Part shown: positions 273-7,461 of the stretch, in pieces
Position numbering within the stretch: position 1 is the stretch's first letter
Layout: each line of letters begins with the position of its first letter
DNA from: a virus
Lineage: Duplodnaviria > Heunggongvirae > Uroviricota > Caudoviricetes
IMG/VR virus record: IMGVR_UViG_2778261152_000006
Reading direction: 5' to 3' (one strand)
DNA: 7,461 bases
Notes under the pieces: model-generated
Databases searched by the model: none
Told to the model about the DNA's origin: nothing
What the model saw: the letters and a program-made list of their open reading frames with translations, nothing else
Made by a program: the position numbers and the translations under genes

Positions 273-698
273 TCAATGCACAGCCACAATATTTCCTGCA
301 GGGCCACCACGATTCATCTGGTTGAAACCAGCGATCGCCACTGCGACAAAATCATCAGCGTCTCTCACCAGTCGTTCCCGCGTCTCCACTAGTTCCCGAA
401 AATAGGCTGAGCTATGGCTGCGCATTCGGGCCACCAGCAGAGGTGGCATTGCTTTTTCGATAGCTGGTAACAACGCCTGAATTTTTTCAACTGCATCAGG
501 GGTGTCTTTCTCTACCCAGCGGAAAATTTTCTGGGTATTGCGAGCCAGGGCTTCCGGATGGCTGTCGTCATACAGTTCTGGGAACGTCATACCCAGTTCA
601 AAATAAGCCCTGGTTATTTCAGCTGCCGGAACTTTTTCACCGTCCGGATGCGCCCAGGCATTCATCGCCATGCGGATGTGTTCATGCTTGATTTTCAT
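273..698 (-). CDS. ydaT: CII-like prophage regulator (YdaT family), 141 aa
   Basis: ORF-track 141 aa protein starting MKIKHEHI, which I recall as the YdaT N-terminus. GGAG lies about 8 nt upstream of the ATG on the minus strand. Start overlaps the end of the upstream Cro-like gene by 17 nt. Symbol is tentative. Confidence 0.7.
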   Translation of the reverse strand: MKIKHEHIRMAMNAWAHPDGEKVPAAEITRAYFELGMTFPELYDDSHPEALARNTQKIFRWVEKDTPDAVEKIQALLPAIEKAMPPLLVARMRSHSSAYFRELVETRERLVRDADDFVAVAIAGFNQMNRGGPAGNIVAVH

Positions 699-963
699 GA
701 ATCAAGCTCCTAGAAAGTGGTTGTGTTAACATTTTGGTATCTTCCAGCTCGGGCCAAATATTCATCCAATCAAAAGGCCTTAGTTGCTGACGTGTAACTT
801 CACCATTACTGGCTCGCTCAATAAGGACACATAACGATGCCCCTAACACTTGACCTTTACTCAATGCCTTTCTTAGATAACCGATGCTGGTACCACACTC
901 GCATGCAAACATACGCTGTTCATCTGACGAAAGAGAATTGAGAAATATTCTTAATTCTTCCAT
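682..963 (-). CDS. Cro-like HTH regulator (YdaS-family analogue), 93 aa
   Basis: 93 aa ORF with an HTH-like segment (ECGTSIGYLRKALSKGQ) and a ...GEVTRQQLRPFDW tail typical of Cro/YdaS-family proteins. Strong SD AAGGAG 6 nt upstream of the ATG on the minus strand. Divergent from the repressor gene across a 100 bp operator-bearing intergenic region. Confidence 0.7.
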   Translation of the reverse strand: MEELRIFLNSLSSDEQRMFACECGTSIGYLRKALSKGQVLGASLCVLIERASNGEVTRQQLRPFDWMNIWPELEDTKMLTQPLSRSLIHENQA

Positions 964-992
964 AGCTACTCCTTAGTAAACACAGCAAAGAA

Positions 993-1069
993 CACCCATA
1001 GGTAAACAAAAGTCAATACCCACAGGTTGTTTACCTTGCAGTAATCGCATCTATTATTTACCTATGGAC
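993..1069. promoter_or_regulatory. OR-like operator cluster between the divergent Cro-like and repressor genes; repeated TACC-N4-GGTA / GGTAAA half-sites
   Basis: CCATAGGTAAA at 996-1006 and its reverse complement TTTACCTATGG at 1057-1067 (11/11). GGTAAACAA at 1001-1009 and its reverse complement TTGTTTACC at 1027-1035. The last site overlaps the repressor ATG at 1064. Confidence 0.5.
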
Positions 1070-1483
1070 AAATATGAATTTAGACGACAGCAACTCATCA
1101 AAATTCGTGATGAGAAATGCGATGGTAAAGCGGTTAACGTGGCCAGAAAGATCGGGCGCGAGCCTTCTTATGTATCAAGAATGTTGTACCCAGAGGGGAA
1201 AAAGGGAAAAAAACGGATCGCTGATGATATGGTGGAGATTATCGAAGAGTCCTTTGGGTTACCCCGGGGATGGATGGATGGTATCGTTTCATCATCAACG
1301 AACACAGCCTCCAGTTATGAAACAAGGGTTCTAACGCCACGACAACGTATTTTTTTAGATCTCTTAGACGAACTGCCAGAAAGTGAAGCGGATAACTTAT
1401 TAAAAACTCTTGAAGAGAAAAAACAGTATTACAATATGATCTACGAAGAAATCCGTAAAAAGAAAGCACAAAACGCATCATAG
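1064..1483 (+). CDS. Prophage repressor (CI/RacR analogue, HTH), 139 aa
   Basis: 139 aa ORF divergent from the Cro-like gene, in the position of racR/cI. No in-frame alternative start upstream (stop at 977-979) and no SD, suggesting a leaderless mRNA. Shorter than the 158 aa I recall for K-12 RacR, so probably a variant immunity allele. Confidence 0.7.
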   Translation: MDKYEFRRQQLIKIRDEKCDGKAVNVARKIGREPSYVSRMLYPEGKKGKKRIADDMVEIIEESFGLPRGWMDGIVSSSTNTASSYETRVLTPRQRIFLDLLDELPESEADNLLKTLEEKKQYYNMIYEEIRKKKAQNAS

Positions 1484-1525: not shown

Positions 1526-1574
1526 TACCCATGGGTATTTACTTTTTAAATACCTATGGGTATCCTTCTTTTCA
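1526..1574 (+). promoter_or_regulatory. OL-like operator palindrome downstream of the repressor gene; also folds as a 15 bp stem-loop followed by a T-rich tract (possible terminator)
   Basis: TACCCATGGGTATTT (1526-1540) and the reverse complement of 1548-1562 (TACCCATAGGTATTT) match 14/15, the mismatch being a G-U wobble in RNA. Loop 1541-1547. Followed by ATCCTTCTTTT. Core ACCCAT(A/G)GGTA is the same motif as at 995-1004. Confidence 0.45.
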
Positions 1575-3806: not shown

Positions 3807-6407
3807 ATGAGCACAAAACCACTCTTCCTGTTACGGAAAGCGAAAAAATCATCCGGTGAACCTGACGTCGTCCTGTGGGCAAGCAACGATTTTGAATCGA
3901 CCTGTGCCACTCTGGACTACCTGATCGTTAAGTCAGGTAAAAAACTGAGCAGCTATTTTAAAGCTGTTGCCACGAATTTTCCTGTCGTTAATGACCTGCC
4001 CGCTGAAGGTGAGATCGATTTTACCTGGAGTGAACGCTATCAACTCAGCAAAGACTCCATGACATGGGAACTAAAACCGGGAGCAGCACCAGACAACGCT
4101 CACTATCAAGGCAATACCAACGTCAACGGCGAAGACATGACTGAGATTGAGGAGAATATGCTACTCCCAATTTCTGGCCAGGAACTGCCCATTCGTTGGC
4201 TTGCTCAACACGGCAGCGAAAAACCGGTAACGCACGTTTCACGCGACGGACTCCAGGCATTACACATTGCTCGGGCTGAAGAACTACCGGCTGTTACTGC
4301 CCTGGCTGTTTCCCACAAAACCAGCCTGCTCGACCCGCTGGAAATTCGCGAACTCCACAAACTGGTTCGTGACACTGACAAAGTTTTCCCTAATCCTGGT
4401 AATTCAAACCTGGGACTGATAACTGCTTTTTTCGAAGCATACCTGAACGCTGACTACACCGATCGAGGACTGCTGACAAAAGAGTGGATGAAGGGTAATC
4501 GTGTTTCACACATCACTCGCACGGCTTCCGGTGCTAATGCTGGCGGCGGAAACCTCACCGATCGCGGCGAAGGTTTCGTACACGATCTGACGTCACTGGC
4601 GCGCGACGTAGCCACTGGCGTACTGGCCCGTTCAATGGATCTGGACATCTATAACCTTCATCCGGCACACGCTAAACGCATTGAGGAAATTATCGCTGAA
4701 AATAAACCGCCCTTTTCTGTTTTCCGCGACAAATTCATCACCATGCCTGGCGGGCTGGATTATTCCCGCGCCATCGTGGTTGCGTCCGTAAAAGAAGCAC
4801 CAATTGGGATCGAGGTCATCCCCGCGCACGTCACTGAATATCTGAACAAAGTACTGACTGAAACCGATCATGCCAACCCTGATCCGGAAATCGTGGATAT
4901 TGCCTGCGGTCGCTCCTCTGCCCCGATGCCGCAGCGAGTAACAGAAGAAGGAAAACAGGATGATGAAGAAAAACCGCAACCATCTGGAACAACGGCAGTT
5001 GAACAGGGAGAGGCTGAAACAATGGAACCGGACGCAACTGAACATCATCAGGACACGCAGCCGCTGGATGCTCAGTCACAGGTAAATTCTGTTGATGCGA
5101 AATATCAGGAACTGCGGGCAGAACTCCATGAAGCCCGGAAAAACATTCCATCAAAAAATCCTGTCGATGCCGATAAATTGCTTGCTGCATCACGTGGTGA
5201 ATTTGTTGACGGAATTAGCGACCCGAACGATCCGAAATGGGTAAAGGGGATCCAGACTCGCGATTGTGTGTACCAGAACCAGCCAGAAACGGAAAAAACC
5301 AGCCCAGATATGAATCAACCTGAGCCAGTAGTGCAACAGGAACCGGAAATAGCCTGCAATGCCTGCGGCCAGACTGGCGGGGATAACTGCCCTGACTGTG
5401 GTGCGGTGATGGGCGACGCAACATACCAGGAAACATTCGCTGAAGAGAGTCAGGTTGAAGCTAAGGAAAATGATCCGGAGGAAATGGAAGGCGCTGAACA
5501 TCCGCACAATGAGAATGCTGGCAGCGATCCGCATCGCGATTGCAGTGATGAAACTGGCGAAGTCGCAGATCCCGTAATCGTAGAAGACATAGAGCCAGGT
5601 ATTTATTACGGAATTTCGAATGAGAATTACCACGCGGGTCCCGGTATCAGTAAGTCTCAGCTCGATGACATTGCTGATACTCCGGCACTATATTTGTGGC
5701 GTAAAAATGCCCCCGTGGACACCACAAAGACAAAAACGCTCGATTTAGGAACTGCTTTCCACTGCCGGGTACTTGAACCGGAAGAATTCAGTAACCGCTT
5801 TATCGTAGCACCTGAATTTAACCGCCGTACAAACGCCGGAAAAGAAGAAGAGAAAGCGTTTCTGATGGAATGCGCAAGCACAGGAAAAACGGTTATCACT
5901 GCGGAAGAAGGCCGGAAAATTGAACTCATGTATCAAAGCGTTATGGCTTTGCCGCTGGGGCAATGGCTTGTTGAAAGCGCCGGACACGCTGAATCATCAA
6001 TTTACTGGGAAGATCCTGAAACAGGAATTTTGTGTCGGTGCCGTCCGGACAAAATTATCCCTGAATTTCACTGGATCATGGACGTGAAAACTACGGCGGA
6101 TATTCAACGATTCAAAACCGCTTATTACGACTACCGCTATCACGTTCAGGATGCATTCTACAGTGACGGTTATGAAGCACAGTTTGGAGTGCAGCCAACT
6201 TTCGTTTTTCTGGTTGCCAGCACAACTATTGAATGCGGACGTTATCCGGTTGAAATTTTCATGATGGGCGAAGAAGCAAAACTGGCAGGTCAACAGGAAT
6301 ATCACCGCAATCTGCGAACCCTGTCTGACTGCCTGAATACCGATGAATGGCCAGCTATTAAGACATTATCACTGCCCCGCTGGGCTAAGGAATATGCAAA
6401 TGACTAA
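3807..6407 (+). CDS. recE: Exodeoxyribonuclease VIII (RecE), 866 aa
   Basis: 866 aa [32 protein letters not shown]... ending ...[11 protein letters not shown], matching the length and sequence I recall for K-12 RecE. The C-terminal third carries the nuclease domain; the middle is acidic and low-complexity. GAGG 9 nt upstream of the ATG. Confidence 0.95.
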
Positions 6408-7086
6408 GCAACCACCAATCGCAAAAGCCGATCTGCAAAAAACCCAGGGAAACCGTGCACCAGCAGCAGTTAAAAATAGCGACGTGATTAGTTTTATTAA
6501 CCAGCCATCAATGAAAGAGCAACTGGCAGCAGCTCTTCCACGCCATATGACGGCTGAACGTATGATCCGTATCGCCACCACAGAAATTCGTAAAGTTCCG
6601 GCGTTAGGAAACTGTGACACTATGAGTTTTGTCAGTGCGATCGTACAGTGTTCACAGCTCGGACTTGAGCCAGGTAGCGCCCTCGGTCATGCATATTTAC
6701 TGCCTTTTGGTAATAAAAACGAAAAGAGCGGTAAAAAGAACGTTCAGCTAATCATTGGCTATCGCGGCATGATTGATCTGGCTCGCCGTTCTGGTCAAAT
6801 CGCCAGCCTGTCAGCCCGTGTTGTCCGTGAAGGTGACGAGTTTAGCTTCGAATTTGGCCTTGATGAAAAGTTAATACACCGCCCGGGAGAAAACGAAGAT
6901 GCCCCGGTTACCCACGTCTATGCTGTCGCAAGACTGAAAGACGGAGGTACTCAGTTTGAAGTTATGACGCGCAAACAGATTGAGCTGGTGCGCAGCCTGA
7001 GTAAAGCTGGTAATAACGGGCCGTGGGTAACTCACTGGGAAGAAATGGCAAAGAAAACGGGTGATGATGCCAACTTACTGATTTAG
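6400..7086 (+). CDS. recT: RecT recombinase, truncated by IS1: 220 native codons plus 8 IS1-encoded codons (GDDANLLI), then stop
   Basis: [32 protein letters not shown]... matches RecT up to ...WEEMAKKT. The IS1 terminal repeat then begins at 7060. Full-length RecT is 269 aa as I recall it. The ATG at 6400 overlaps the recE stop (ATGACTAA). Track ORF 6343-7086 starts at an upstream ATG that I regard as not used. Confidence 0.9.
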
Positions 7087-7114
7087 TGTATGATGGTGTT
7101 TTTGAGGTGCTCCA

Positions 7115-7390
7115 GTGGCTTCTGTTTCTATCAGCTGTCCCTCCTGTTCAGCTACTGACGGGGTGGTGCGTAACGGCAAAAGCACCGCCGGACATCAGCG
7201 CTATCTCTGCTCTCACTGCCGTAAAACATGGCAACTGCAGTTCACTTACACCGCTTCTCAACCCGGTACGCACCAGAAAATCATTGATATGGCCATGAAT
7301 GGCGTTGGATGCCGGGCAACCGCCCGCATTATGGGCGTTGGCCTCAACACGATTTTCCGCCATTTAAAAAACTCAGGCCGCAGTCGGTAA
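7115..7390 (+). CDS. insA: IS1 InsA (transposition regulator), 91 aa
   Basis: [91 protein letters not shown] is the IS1 InsA sequence. Confidence 0.95.
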
Positions 7391-7461
7391 CCTCGCGCAT
7401 ACAGCCGGGCAGTGACGTCATCGTCTGCGCGGAAATGGACGAACAGTGGGGCTATGTCGGG
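7309..7461 (+). CDS. insB: IS1 InsB (transposase frame), N-terminal 51 codons; partial at window end. Active product is the InsAB' frameshift fusion
   Basis: -1 frame relative to insA translates [51 protein letters not shown], matching the InsB N-terminus. Open to the end of the window. Confidence 0.8.
7366..7372 (+). other. IS1 A6C programmed -1 ribosomal frameshift motif (AAAAAAC) at the end of insA
   Basis: TTAAAAAAC at 7364-7372 sits in the insA/insB overlap, where the IS1 frameshift window is known to lie. Confidence 0.7.

Follow-up and report, generated by a model that had tools for sequence, protein, structure and literature searches.

The stretch of DNA analysed here, which we call the window (7461 bp), belongs to a lambdoid E. 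coli prophage of the Rac type and contains its immunity region. Over bases 600-1700 it matches the chromosome of E. coli strain H7 with 100% identity, and there the PGAP annotation runs from a YdaT-family (cII-like) gene through a divergent "transcriptional regulator" (YdaS/cro-like) to a 420-nt "hypothetical protein" gene, WP_000362155.1, and from there to ydaG/ydaF, sieB, kilR, ydaE, racC, recE, and recT. The coordinates of the WP_000362155.1 gene match those of the ORF that an earlier note, made from the letters alone, had taken for a repressor gene probably expressed from a leaderless mRNA. The Rac prophage of K-12 has an equal gene order, with racR occupying the place of this 139-aa ORF. 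The genes of the immunity region are the following:

273..698, minus strand: cII-like gene of the YdaT family, 141 aa, downstream of the cro-like gene (Pfam YdaT_toxin, E 7e-10)
682..963, minus strand: divergent cro-like gene of the YdaS family, 93 aa (Pfam YdaS_toxin, E 9e-6; PHROG 35; "transcriptional regulator" in PGAP)
1064..1483, plus strand: repressor gene, 139 aa, identical to WP_000362155.1 (ORF list, PGAP, PHROG 5736)

The product of the cII-like gene also matches PHROG 163, "CII-like transcriptional activator" (E 9e-46), and the intergenic region between the repressor gene and the cro-like gene is 100 bp long. The repressor ORF is intact, and the region is conserved in 822 of 5426 complete E. 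coli genomes (~15%), with carriers that include CFT073 as well as O157, O111, and O103 strains. An Rfam search of the window returned no RNA family. Further along the window, recT is interrupted by an IS1 element at about position 7060, and frameshifted alleles of the repressor gene are present in other strains.

The 139-aa protein has a predicted N-terminal HTH domain of the Xre/cI type (approximately residues 1-75), a disordered linker (residues 77-87), and a helical DicA-like C-terminal domain. It matches PHROG 5736 ("transcriptional regulator") with an E-value of 4.4e-70, residues 1-139 covering profile positions 1-133 of 133 in an alignment that begins at residue 1. The last 50 residues resemble the C-terminus of DicA (NCBIfam PRK09706, E 2.8e-5, which is below the family cut-off); a Pfam search of the protein gave no match, and a sequence search of the PDB gave nothing significant. 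A database search retrieved 317 homologues. Residues 1-75 are 65-80% identical to the N-domains of many S24 (LexA-type) peptidase repressors of 220-240 aa from Salmonella, Klebsiella, Pantoea, Edwardsiella, and others; relatives with the same N-domain carry PF00717, and one of the N-domain relatives is the annotated cI of the functional lambdoid phage mEp043. The AlphaFold (AF2) model, with a pLDDT of 85 overall and above 90 for residues 1-70, consists of a helical N-domain and a long helical C-domain, and a Foldseek search of the PDB retrieved the Rep protein of phage SPC32H (E 6.5e-4), C-proteins, HigA, and the N-domains of the lambda and TP901-1 cI proteins, mostly with weak E-values. No C-terminal S24 (LexA-like) self-cleavage domain is seen in the repressor, whether by Pfam search, in its DicA-like C-terminus, or in the AF2 model.

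Judged by sequence and modelled fold, the 139-aa protein is a repressor-type protein at the cI position. The earlier note's designation of it as a repressor holds up well, being supported by the modelled HTH fold, the N-domain common to mEp043 cI and the S24-type repressors, the cI position itself, and the palindromes described below that flank the gene on both sides. We considered whether the protein might be a RacR homologue and rejected this, as a BLASTP comparison with K-12 RacR gave an E-value of 2.3 and genomic position alone is shared. Because the repressor proteins are unrelated and their operators differ, the window's prophage is, by this comparison, a heteroimmune Rac-type prophage relative to K-12 Rac.

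The nearest in-frame stop codon 5' of ATG 1064 is TAA 977-979, the 29th codon upstream, and the 28 sense codons between the two include no ATG, GTG, or TTG. PGAP places the start of WP_000362155.1 in both E. coli H7 and CFT073 at the same ATG; CFT073, whose protein is identical, departs from the window at two intergenic positions. Across the family M1 and the motif MDKYE are invariant, while codons 2-5 vary synonymously (GAC/GAT, AAA/AAG, TAT/TAC, GAA/GAG), and in the alignments M1, K3, Y4, E5, R7, R8, and L11 are all invariant. Because of this combination of invariant residues and synonymous variation, translation can be placed at the MDKYE ATG throughout the family; the upstream ORF extensions made by gene callers in relatives are short and unrelated to one another. 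By these alignments ATG 1064 is the true translation start, and the same ATG is used family-wide. The earlier note had put forward ATG 1064 as the only possible start, citing an in-frame stop with 28 codons between and no alternative start among them, and both the stop and the uniqueness of the start are confirmed, with the invariance of M1 in homologues as further support. Two later starts, GTG 1139 and ATG 1181, were rejected, since both lack a Shine-Dalgarno sequence and residues 1-25 belong to the best-conserved part of the family. An 86-aa ORF starting at the out-of-frame ATG 1074 was rejected as spurious, its start being annotated only in the frameshifted alleles P0012 and P0018.

There is no Shine-Dalgarno sequence before ATG 1064. 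The 21 nt that precede it (AATCGCATCTATTATTTACCT) contain a single G, and the best duplex with the 3' end of 16S rRNA has an energy of +1.9 kcal/mol, against anti-Shine-Dalgarno duplexes of -8.6 kcal/mol for the neighbouring cro-like gene, -6.5 kcal/mol for the ydaT-like gene, and -8.3 kcal/mol for the ydaG-like gene. The absence of such a sequence, also claimed in the earlier note, is thus borne out by the comparison with neighbouring genes. Folding of the predicted repressor mRNA leaves nucleotides 1-26 unpaired.

The repressor gene is flanked on both sides by copies of a short palindrome. The pattern TACCNNNNGGTA (TACC-N4-GGTA), searched with at most one mismatch, has eight matches in the window compared to 1.3 expected, and five of the eight flank the repressor gene. 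These sites and the promoter of the divergent gene lie as follows:

993..1004, unstranded: putative operator O1, CACCCATAGGTA, centre at -65.5 from A1064, overlapping the spacer and -10 of the divergent PR-like promoter
1017..1028, unstranded: putative operator O2, TACCCACAGGTT, centre at -41.5 from A1064
1032..1043, unstranded: putative operator O3, TACCTTGCAGTA, centre at -26.5 from A1064, covering the -35 and spacer of the repressor promoter
989..1016, minus strand: predicted PR-like promoter of the cro-like gene, with -35 TTGACT at 1016-1011 and -10 at 994-989
1526..1570, plus strand: two perfect putative operators, TACCCATGGGTA (1526-1537) and TACCTATGGGTA (1551-1562), 25 bp apart, just past the repressor stop codon

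Since O3 covers the -35 and the spacer of the repressor promoter, it is the predicted site of negative autoregulation. By analogy with lambda, O2 would probably repress PR and would possibly activate the repressor promoter. The PR-like promoter was read off the sequence and compared with relatives, in which the hexamer beginning at the last TA of O1 is TAAACT, TAATAT, or TAAATT; the promoter scan itself did not call it. A start near 982 would give the cro-like gene a leader of about 19 nt with the Shine-Dalgarno sequence AAGGAG, to which the -8.6 kcal/mol given above applies. The -10 of this promoter reads TGTTCT in the window versus TATTCT in other E. coli variants. The difference is due to a rare derived allele, a T-to-C change giving C at 993 that is found in 20 of the 822 carriers and that turns the predicted PR -10 from TATTCT into TGTTCT and weakens O1; this C993 allele may damp the expression of toxic ydaS/ydaT-type genes.

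On the other side of the gene, the downstream operator pair forms a 16-bp hairpin followed by a T-run (fold -24.1 kcal/mol, z -4.6), which looks like a terminator-like end of the repressor transcript. By analogy, the sites at 1526-1562 also look like lambda OL beside a PL-like promoter for the ydaG-recET direction. A possible fourth operator, TACCTATGGACA, lies over the start codon at 1059-1070 with two mismatches; in relatives the bases 5' of the ATG lack conservation, and coding constrains the downstream half of this candidate.

The predicted promoter of the repressor gene has two elements:

1030..1035, plus strand: predicted -35-like hexamer TTTACC, matching at 4 of 6 positions, with a spacer of 16, overlapping the left half of O3 (promoter scan)
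1052..1057, plus strand: predicted -10 hexamer, TATTAT, belonging to the PRM-like promoter of the repressor gene, with 6 nt between it and the ATG (promoter scan)

This is the pair that the earlier note had picked out, a -10-like TATTAT with a weak -35-like TTTACC 16 bp upstream, and the scan of both strands of 600-1900 found no sigma-70-like match other than TTTACC-16 nt-TATTAT (9 of 12). As to the weak -35, the hexamer matches at only 4 of 6 positions and belongs to O3: ATTTACC is conserved in relatives as part of that operator, and as TTTACC lies within O3 its conservation is not creditable to -35 function. No E. coli or Salmonella variant of the immunity region departs from TATTAT, and the bases 5' of it vary; likewise CTATTATTTAC(C/T)TATGG is fixed within the E. 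coli and Salmonella variants, and the adjacent bases differ. The number of promoter-like matches in 600-1900, one observed against a shuffle expectation of 2.1 +/- 1.6, is not above chance, so that within this one sequence the information lies only in where the match falls.

That position is a specific one. Transcription usually starts at the seventh base downstream of the -10. Six nucleotides, TTACCT (1058-1063), lie between the -10 and A1064, which makes A1064 the seventh base downstream. It is the only well-placed purine, 1058-1063 being all pyrimidines except for A1060, 3 nt past the -10. Transcription would thus most likely start at A1064, the first base of the start codon. A start a few bases away, for example at 1060 or 1066, would yield a very short leader or an AUG-less, untranslatable transcript, and we regard it as quite unlikely. 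RNA polymerase does shift its start by 1-2 nt, two further purines, A1060 and G1066, lie close to where a start is expected, and relatives have gaps of both 6 and 7 nt between the -10 and the ATG; A1060, however, is just 3 nt from the -10 and A1064 is at the optimal position, and in lambda, racR, and paaR2, which share this geometry, the first transcribed base is the A of the ATG (PMC9638921; PMC8630535). Moreover, a transcript with a leader as short as 1-4 nt would in effect still be leaderless.

Because a single promoter-like match is not above chance, the argument for leaderless expression from A1064 is carried by the relatives. One genome per species was scanned, which gave 45 loci with the same N-domain and 33 after removal of near-duplicates, from Enterobacterales, Aeromonas, Neisseria, Burkholderiales, Nitrosomonadales, Xanthomonadales, and others (gamma- and betaproteobacteria); these relatives are not phylogenetically independent, so the counts that follow overstate the number of independent events. 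If any hexamer that scores at least 4 bits with the -10 matrix is taken as -10-like, and the gap is counted from its end to the ATG, 15 of the 33 loci have one at a gap of 6 nt (7 loci) or 7 nt (8 loci), compared with none of the 33 at gaps 0-5 or 8-10 and a background of about 1.4% per position at gaps 0-5 and 8-44. With the looser pattern nAnnnT the count at these two gaps rises to 23 of 33; in every listed locus the best hexamer has T as its sixth base. The hexamers include TAGAAT, TAAAAT, TATGAT, and TAGACT, among others, and several betaproteobacterial relatives have a weak one (TGAAAT, TTGAAT, TCGGAT). The bases between hexamer and ATG vary freely.

The operators keep the same register. 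Relative to the ATG, 22 of the 33 relatives have O2 at -41.5 or -42.5, 27 have O1 between -65.5 and -68.5, and 23 have O3 at -26.5 or -27.5. The upstream architecture can be written as caATACC-N4-GGttATTTACC-N4-GGTAA, 8-10 variable bases, the -10-like hexamer, 6 or 7 variable bases, and the ATG. Sequence comparison thus supports an ATG locked to promoter and operators at single-base resolution across distant hosts, as is predicted for a leaderless gene; a leadered gene would not keep this register, because the length of a leader can drift. The same comparison bears on whether the -10/ATG arrangement could be coincidental, or another binding site, with the gene of a cryptic prophage silent or not expressed from it. 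The promoter count in the single sequence would allow this, and the prophage is decaying, as the IS1 in recT, the mutated PR -10, and the frameshifted repressor alleles elsewhere indicate. Against that stand the positional -10 peak in the 33 non-redundant relatives with its typical A2/T6 pattern, the intact ORF and its conservation in the 822 genomes, and the functional phage mEp043, which has the same layout with TAGAAT + 6 nt + ATG of the annotated cI, and we consider mere coincidence or silence very improbable.

Start codons other than AUG work poorly without a leader, and the 42 loci whose protein begins in the MDKYE manner (MDK/RY/FE) all use ATG. Of the 33 relatives, 28 have no Shine-Dalgarno sequence; the control set for Shine-Dalgarno strength was a crude one, every ORF of 100 aa or more in the loci with spurious ones included, which makes its p of 0.024 only indicative. 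The Edwardsiella loci have a GGAGG upstream of the -10, as lambda has GGTGA, and because of that position it could serve only leadered transcripts. In Orbus (L034) there is a real Shine-Dalgarno sequence, AAGGGGGG, at normal spacing, with the -10 displaced and a longer gap, from which it follows that the leaderless arrangement is not obligatory.

Leadered transcripts are also at the centre of the alternative to which we give the most weight, although we still consider it unlikely: that the repressor is made mainly from transcripts starting further upstream, with internal initiation at AUG 1064 without a Shine-Dalgarno sequence. Such transcripts could come from a PRE-like promoter within the cro-like and cII-like genes, activated by a YdaT-type protein, or from extra intergenic promoters as in K-12 racR, and the U/A-rich upstream stretch would perhaps aid internal initiation. 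A CII-like activator gene (PHROG 163) is present, the YdaT of CP-933P is an activator of a PRE-like promoter and racR of K-12 is transcribed from three promoters (PMC8630535, PMC9638921), and the sequence 5' of the ATG is A/T-rich. However, no other sigma-70-like promoter is found on the plus strand of 600-1900, and the lack of a Shine-Dalgarno sequence here, unlike in K-12 racR (AGGAG) or lambda (GGTGA), would make internal initiation poor. Transcription mainly from further upstream would also leave unexplained why the -10 and operators keep a single-nucleotide register with the ATG across distant hosts. Leadered transcripts could nevertheless coexist with the leaderless one during establishment.

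We therefore return to the leaderless reading, to which we assign a probability of about 0.78: the repressor gene would be transcribed from a sigma-70, PRM-like promoter with its start at A1064, giving an mRNA that begins 5'-AUG and has no Shine-Dalgarno sequence. This expression mode, which the earlier note had proposed as probable, is supported by the -10 at 6-7 nt in relatives, the absence of a Shine-Dalgarno sequence, the operator register, and the unpaired 5' end. From the sequence itself, the conserved geometry, the missing Shine-Dalgarno sequence, the operator family, and the modelled HTH fold, we infer the following scheme, in which every protein-DNA and RNA step is a predicted one, including the exact transcription start, translation from the 5'-AUG, the binding of palindromes by the protein, and activation from O2. 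Sigma-70 RNA polymerase would transcribe the 139-aa repressor gene from the PRM-like promoter TTTACC-16 nt-TATTAT, beginning at A1064, so that the 5' end of the mRNA is the AUG, with neither leader nor Shine-Dalgarno sequence, and the ribosome would initiate straight on this 5'-terminal AUG. Repressor dimers would then bind the 12-bp palindromes TACC-N4-GGTA. Occupancy of O1 and O2 would shut the divergent PR-like promoter of the cro-like and cII-like genes, and O2, at the position from which lambda cI on OR2 touches sigma, would probably also stimulate the repressor promoter. At high repressor levels, O3, lying over the -35 and spacer, would shut the repressor promoter in negative autoregulation. 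The hairpin made by the two OL-like operators, together with its T-run, would end the repressor transcript.

A wider reading, on which we place about even odds, is that the leaderless layout is hard-wired in the whole MDKYE-type repressor family, whose members occur in gamma- and betaproteobacterial prophages, with the divergent cro-like arm leaderless too in many non-enteric members. Promoter, three operators, and start codon would then form one unit of about 80 bp in fixed register. In many non-enteric relatives (Burkholderiales, Xanthomonadales, Hydrogenophilaceae), the cro-like gene begins 6-9 nt after its -10. If the wider reading is true, both arms of the lysis-lysogeny switch are leaderless in such members, and the two start codons are the two transcription starts.

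The mechanism proposed for the window's gene is that of the lambda PRM paradigm; it changes no concept and would not surprise a specialist. What it bears on is a repressor that is carried by about 15% of complete E. coli genomes and annotated merely as a "hypothetical protein". Its recognition as a cI-position repressor fixes the start codon, which several gene callers extend or shift in relatives, and yields predicted operators and promoters for a Rac-type prophage that is widespread. It would also be a further case for the association of leaderless mRNAs with the repressors of mobile elements in enterobacteria, and the conservation across the family gives a clean set of cases for studying, by comparison, why leaderless expression is so frequent among repressor genes. 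Lambda cI, racR, dicA, ymfK, and paaR2 already have documented leaderless mRNAs, and the gene in the window adds to them a well-supported prediction; literature and accession searches for 5'-end data on the protein, its family, phage mEp043, and CFT073 gave nothing usable.

The closest parallel in layout is lambda, where cI is expressed from PRM as a leaderless mRNA and the ribosome initiates on the 5'-terminal AUG. In both, divergent repressor and cro-type genes lie about 100 bp apart, with a cII-type gene after cro. Measured in the same way, lambda (NC_001416) has PRM as TAGATT + TAACGT + ATG, with OR2 at -42, OR1 at -66, and OR3 at -19; the -10 is thus 6 nt before the ATG in lambda (TAGATT-TAACGT-ATG) as it is here (TATTAT-TTACCT-ATG), and operators at about -42 and about -66, a third over the promoter, and OL-like operators past the gene are common to both, the positions in the window assuming the predicted start. 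The likeness to lambda cI and PRM drawn in the earlier note is well founded in this respect, with -10 + 6 nt + ATG in both and O1 and O2 matching the positions of OR1 and OR2. In contrast, apart from the modelled HTH fold the window's protein shows no similarity in sequence to lambda cI, and it has no S24 self-cleavage domain; its operators are 12 bp long (TACC-N4-GGTA) rather than 17 bp; O3 is at -26.5 rather than -19, with O2 and O3 15 bp apart rather than 23; and lambda has an SD-like GGTGA for leadered transcripts, whereas the window's gene does not.

K-12 RacR is encoded at the corresponding place of a prophage of this kind, with ydaG/ydaF/sieB/kilR/recET on one side and ydaS/ydaT on the other. 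It is likewise a short repressor without a peptidase domain, and its -10, GAATAT, lies 6 nt before the ATG. The racR gene has three promoters, two of them leadered, and the third, PracR3, was found to be leaderless by primer extension and -10 mutagenesis (PMC9638921). It differs from the window's gene in protein sequence (the BLASTP E-value of 2.3 given above), in operators, and in having an AGGAG Shine-Dalgarno sequence 12 nt upstream.

PaaR2 of CP-933P, from E. coli O157:H7, is another lambdoid cryptic-prophage repressor divergent from ydaS-ydaT, with an intergenic region of 97 bp (100 bp here) and PL/OL-like sites, and paaR2 was found to be leaderless by 5' RACE, N-terminal sequencing, and mass spectrometry (PMC8630535). 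In the same prophage YdaT activates the PRE-like promoter mentioned above (PMC8630535, PMC9638921). Unlike the window's protein, PaaR2 starts with MQKKE, has the operator consensus GTTTAGTAA, and shares an operon with the toxin-antitoxin genes paaA2-parE2 (PMC8630535), which the window's locus lacks.

DicA (Qin) and YmfK (e14) are, like RacR, E. coli prophage repressors whose mRNAs are leaderless by dRNA-seq (PMC4681348). The C-terminal 50 residues of the window's protein resemble the C-terminus of DicA, but its N-terminal DNA-binding domain is of another family than those of DicA and YmfK (the MDKYE type, PHROG 5736). That N-domain is instead the one found in mEp043 cI and the S24-type repressors. 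These carry a C-terminal S24 peptidase, and because of this domain the S24-type repressors are RecA-inducible, whereas the window's protein has the helical DicA-like C-terminus in its place; they share with it an N-domain at 65-80% identity, the same operators, and the arrangement TAGAAT + 6 nt + ATG.

The divergent cro-like gene of relatives from the Burkholderiales, Xanthomonadales and Hydrogenophilaceae has no Shine-Dalgarno sequence and starts 6-9 nt past a -10 hexamer of its own (such as TAAATT or TAATGT), so that in these relatives the two switch genes both look leaderless. The loci concerned, each encoding the repressor N-domain, are L022, L026, L029, L030, L032, L035, L036, L037, L039, L040 and L043-L045, in which the cro-like start region precedes position 1501 by about 60-90 nt and the encoded N-terminus reads M-D/E-K/T-L-L/R-x-Y-L-N-S-L-S. 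In the Enterobacterales, the window included, the cro-like gene has a leader of 25-32 nt with GGAG. For the repressor gene itself, a canonical Shine-Dalgarno sequence occurs in a single member of the family, the Orbus sasakiae locus (L034, 1440-1503), which reads AAGGGGGGATCT-ATG and lacks a -10 at the usual gap from the repressor ATG. This locus appears to carry a leadered derivative of the family's repressor gene.

The predicted promoter of the cro-like gene and the predicted upstream operators vary among strains. Window position 993 is C, with T in all other E. coli and Salmonella variants examined. On the minus strand (989-994), this C converts the predicted PR-type -10 from TATTCT to TGTTCT, with loss of the key A, and it also damages one half-site of the predicted operator O1, giving CACC in place of TACC. 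Of the 822 complete E. coli genomes that carry the region, 20 have the exact 30-mer with C993 and 103 the T version. C993 may be a promoter-down mutation by which a cryptic prophage has its toxic genes of the ydaS/ydaT type tamed. A further polymorphism, at position 1040, falls within O3, the presumed autorepression site; the window form, TACCTTGCAGTA, is also present in strains M10 and CFT073, and O157, O111 and other strains have TACCTTGCGGTA, a perfect half-site.

Operator-like sequence also extends over the repressor start codon, where TTTACCTATGG (1057-1067) is an exact inverted copy of the O1 sequence CCATAGGTAAA, as part of a 17-nt inverted repeat (996-1012 / 1051-1067; 88% complementarity). 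TACCTATGGACA at 1059-1070 fits the operator pattern with 2 mismatches. This sequence may be a weak fourth operator at +1, or the match may reflect chance together with coding constraint.

Some E. coli genomes carry frameshifted repressor alleles (proteins P0012 and P0018; window 1074-1334), which gene callers begin at the out-of-frame ATG 1074 (MNLDD...), the normal frame being regained later. These alleles are evidence for decay of the repressor gene in some lineages.

Elsewhere in the prophage, recT (start near 6400) is interrupted by IS1 about 20 codons short of its normal end:
7060 (window 7060-7461), beginning of the IS1 terminal repeat GGTGATGATGCCAACTTACTGAT
7115-7390, insA, after the terminal repeat

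In strain H7, whose sequence matches bases 600-1700 exactly, IS1 is located in kilR rather than recT, which means that the window derives from another, closely related strain. A YdaG-like small ORF (1738-1869, 44 aa) matches UBA-like domain profiles (PF14555, E 3e-5), which is unexpected in an early gene of a prophage.

Downstream, 43 nt past the repressor stop codon, lies an operator pair overlapped by a promoter-like sequence:
1526-1570, region with TACCCATGGGTA and TACCTATGGGTA, both perfect operator palindromes, spaced 25 bp
1538-1543 and 1561-1566, PL-like promoter, TTTACT and TATCCT separated by 17 nt

Because both operators are palindromic, the pair also folds into a hairpin of 16 bp with a T-run behind it (-24.1 kcal/mol, z -4.6), and this single element therefore resembles both an OL operator pair and a terminator of the repressor transcript.
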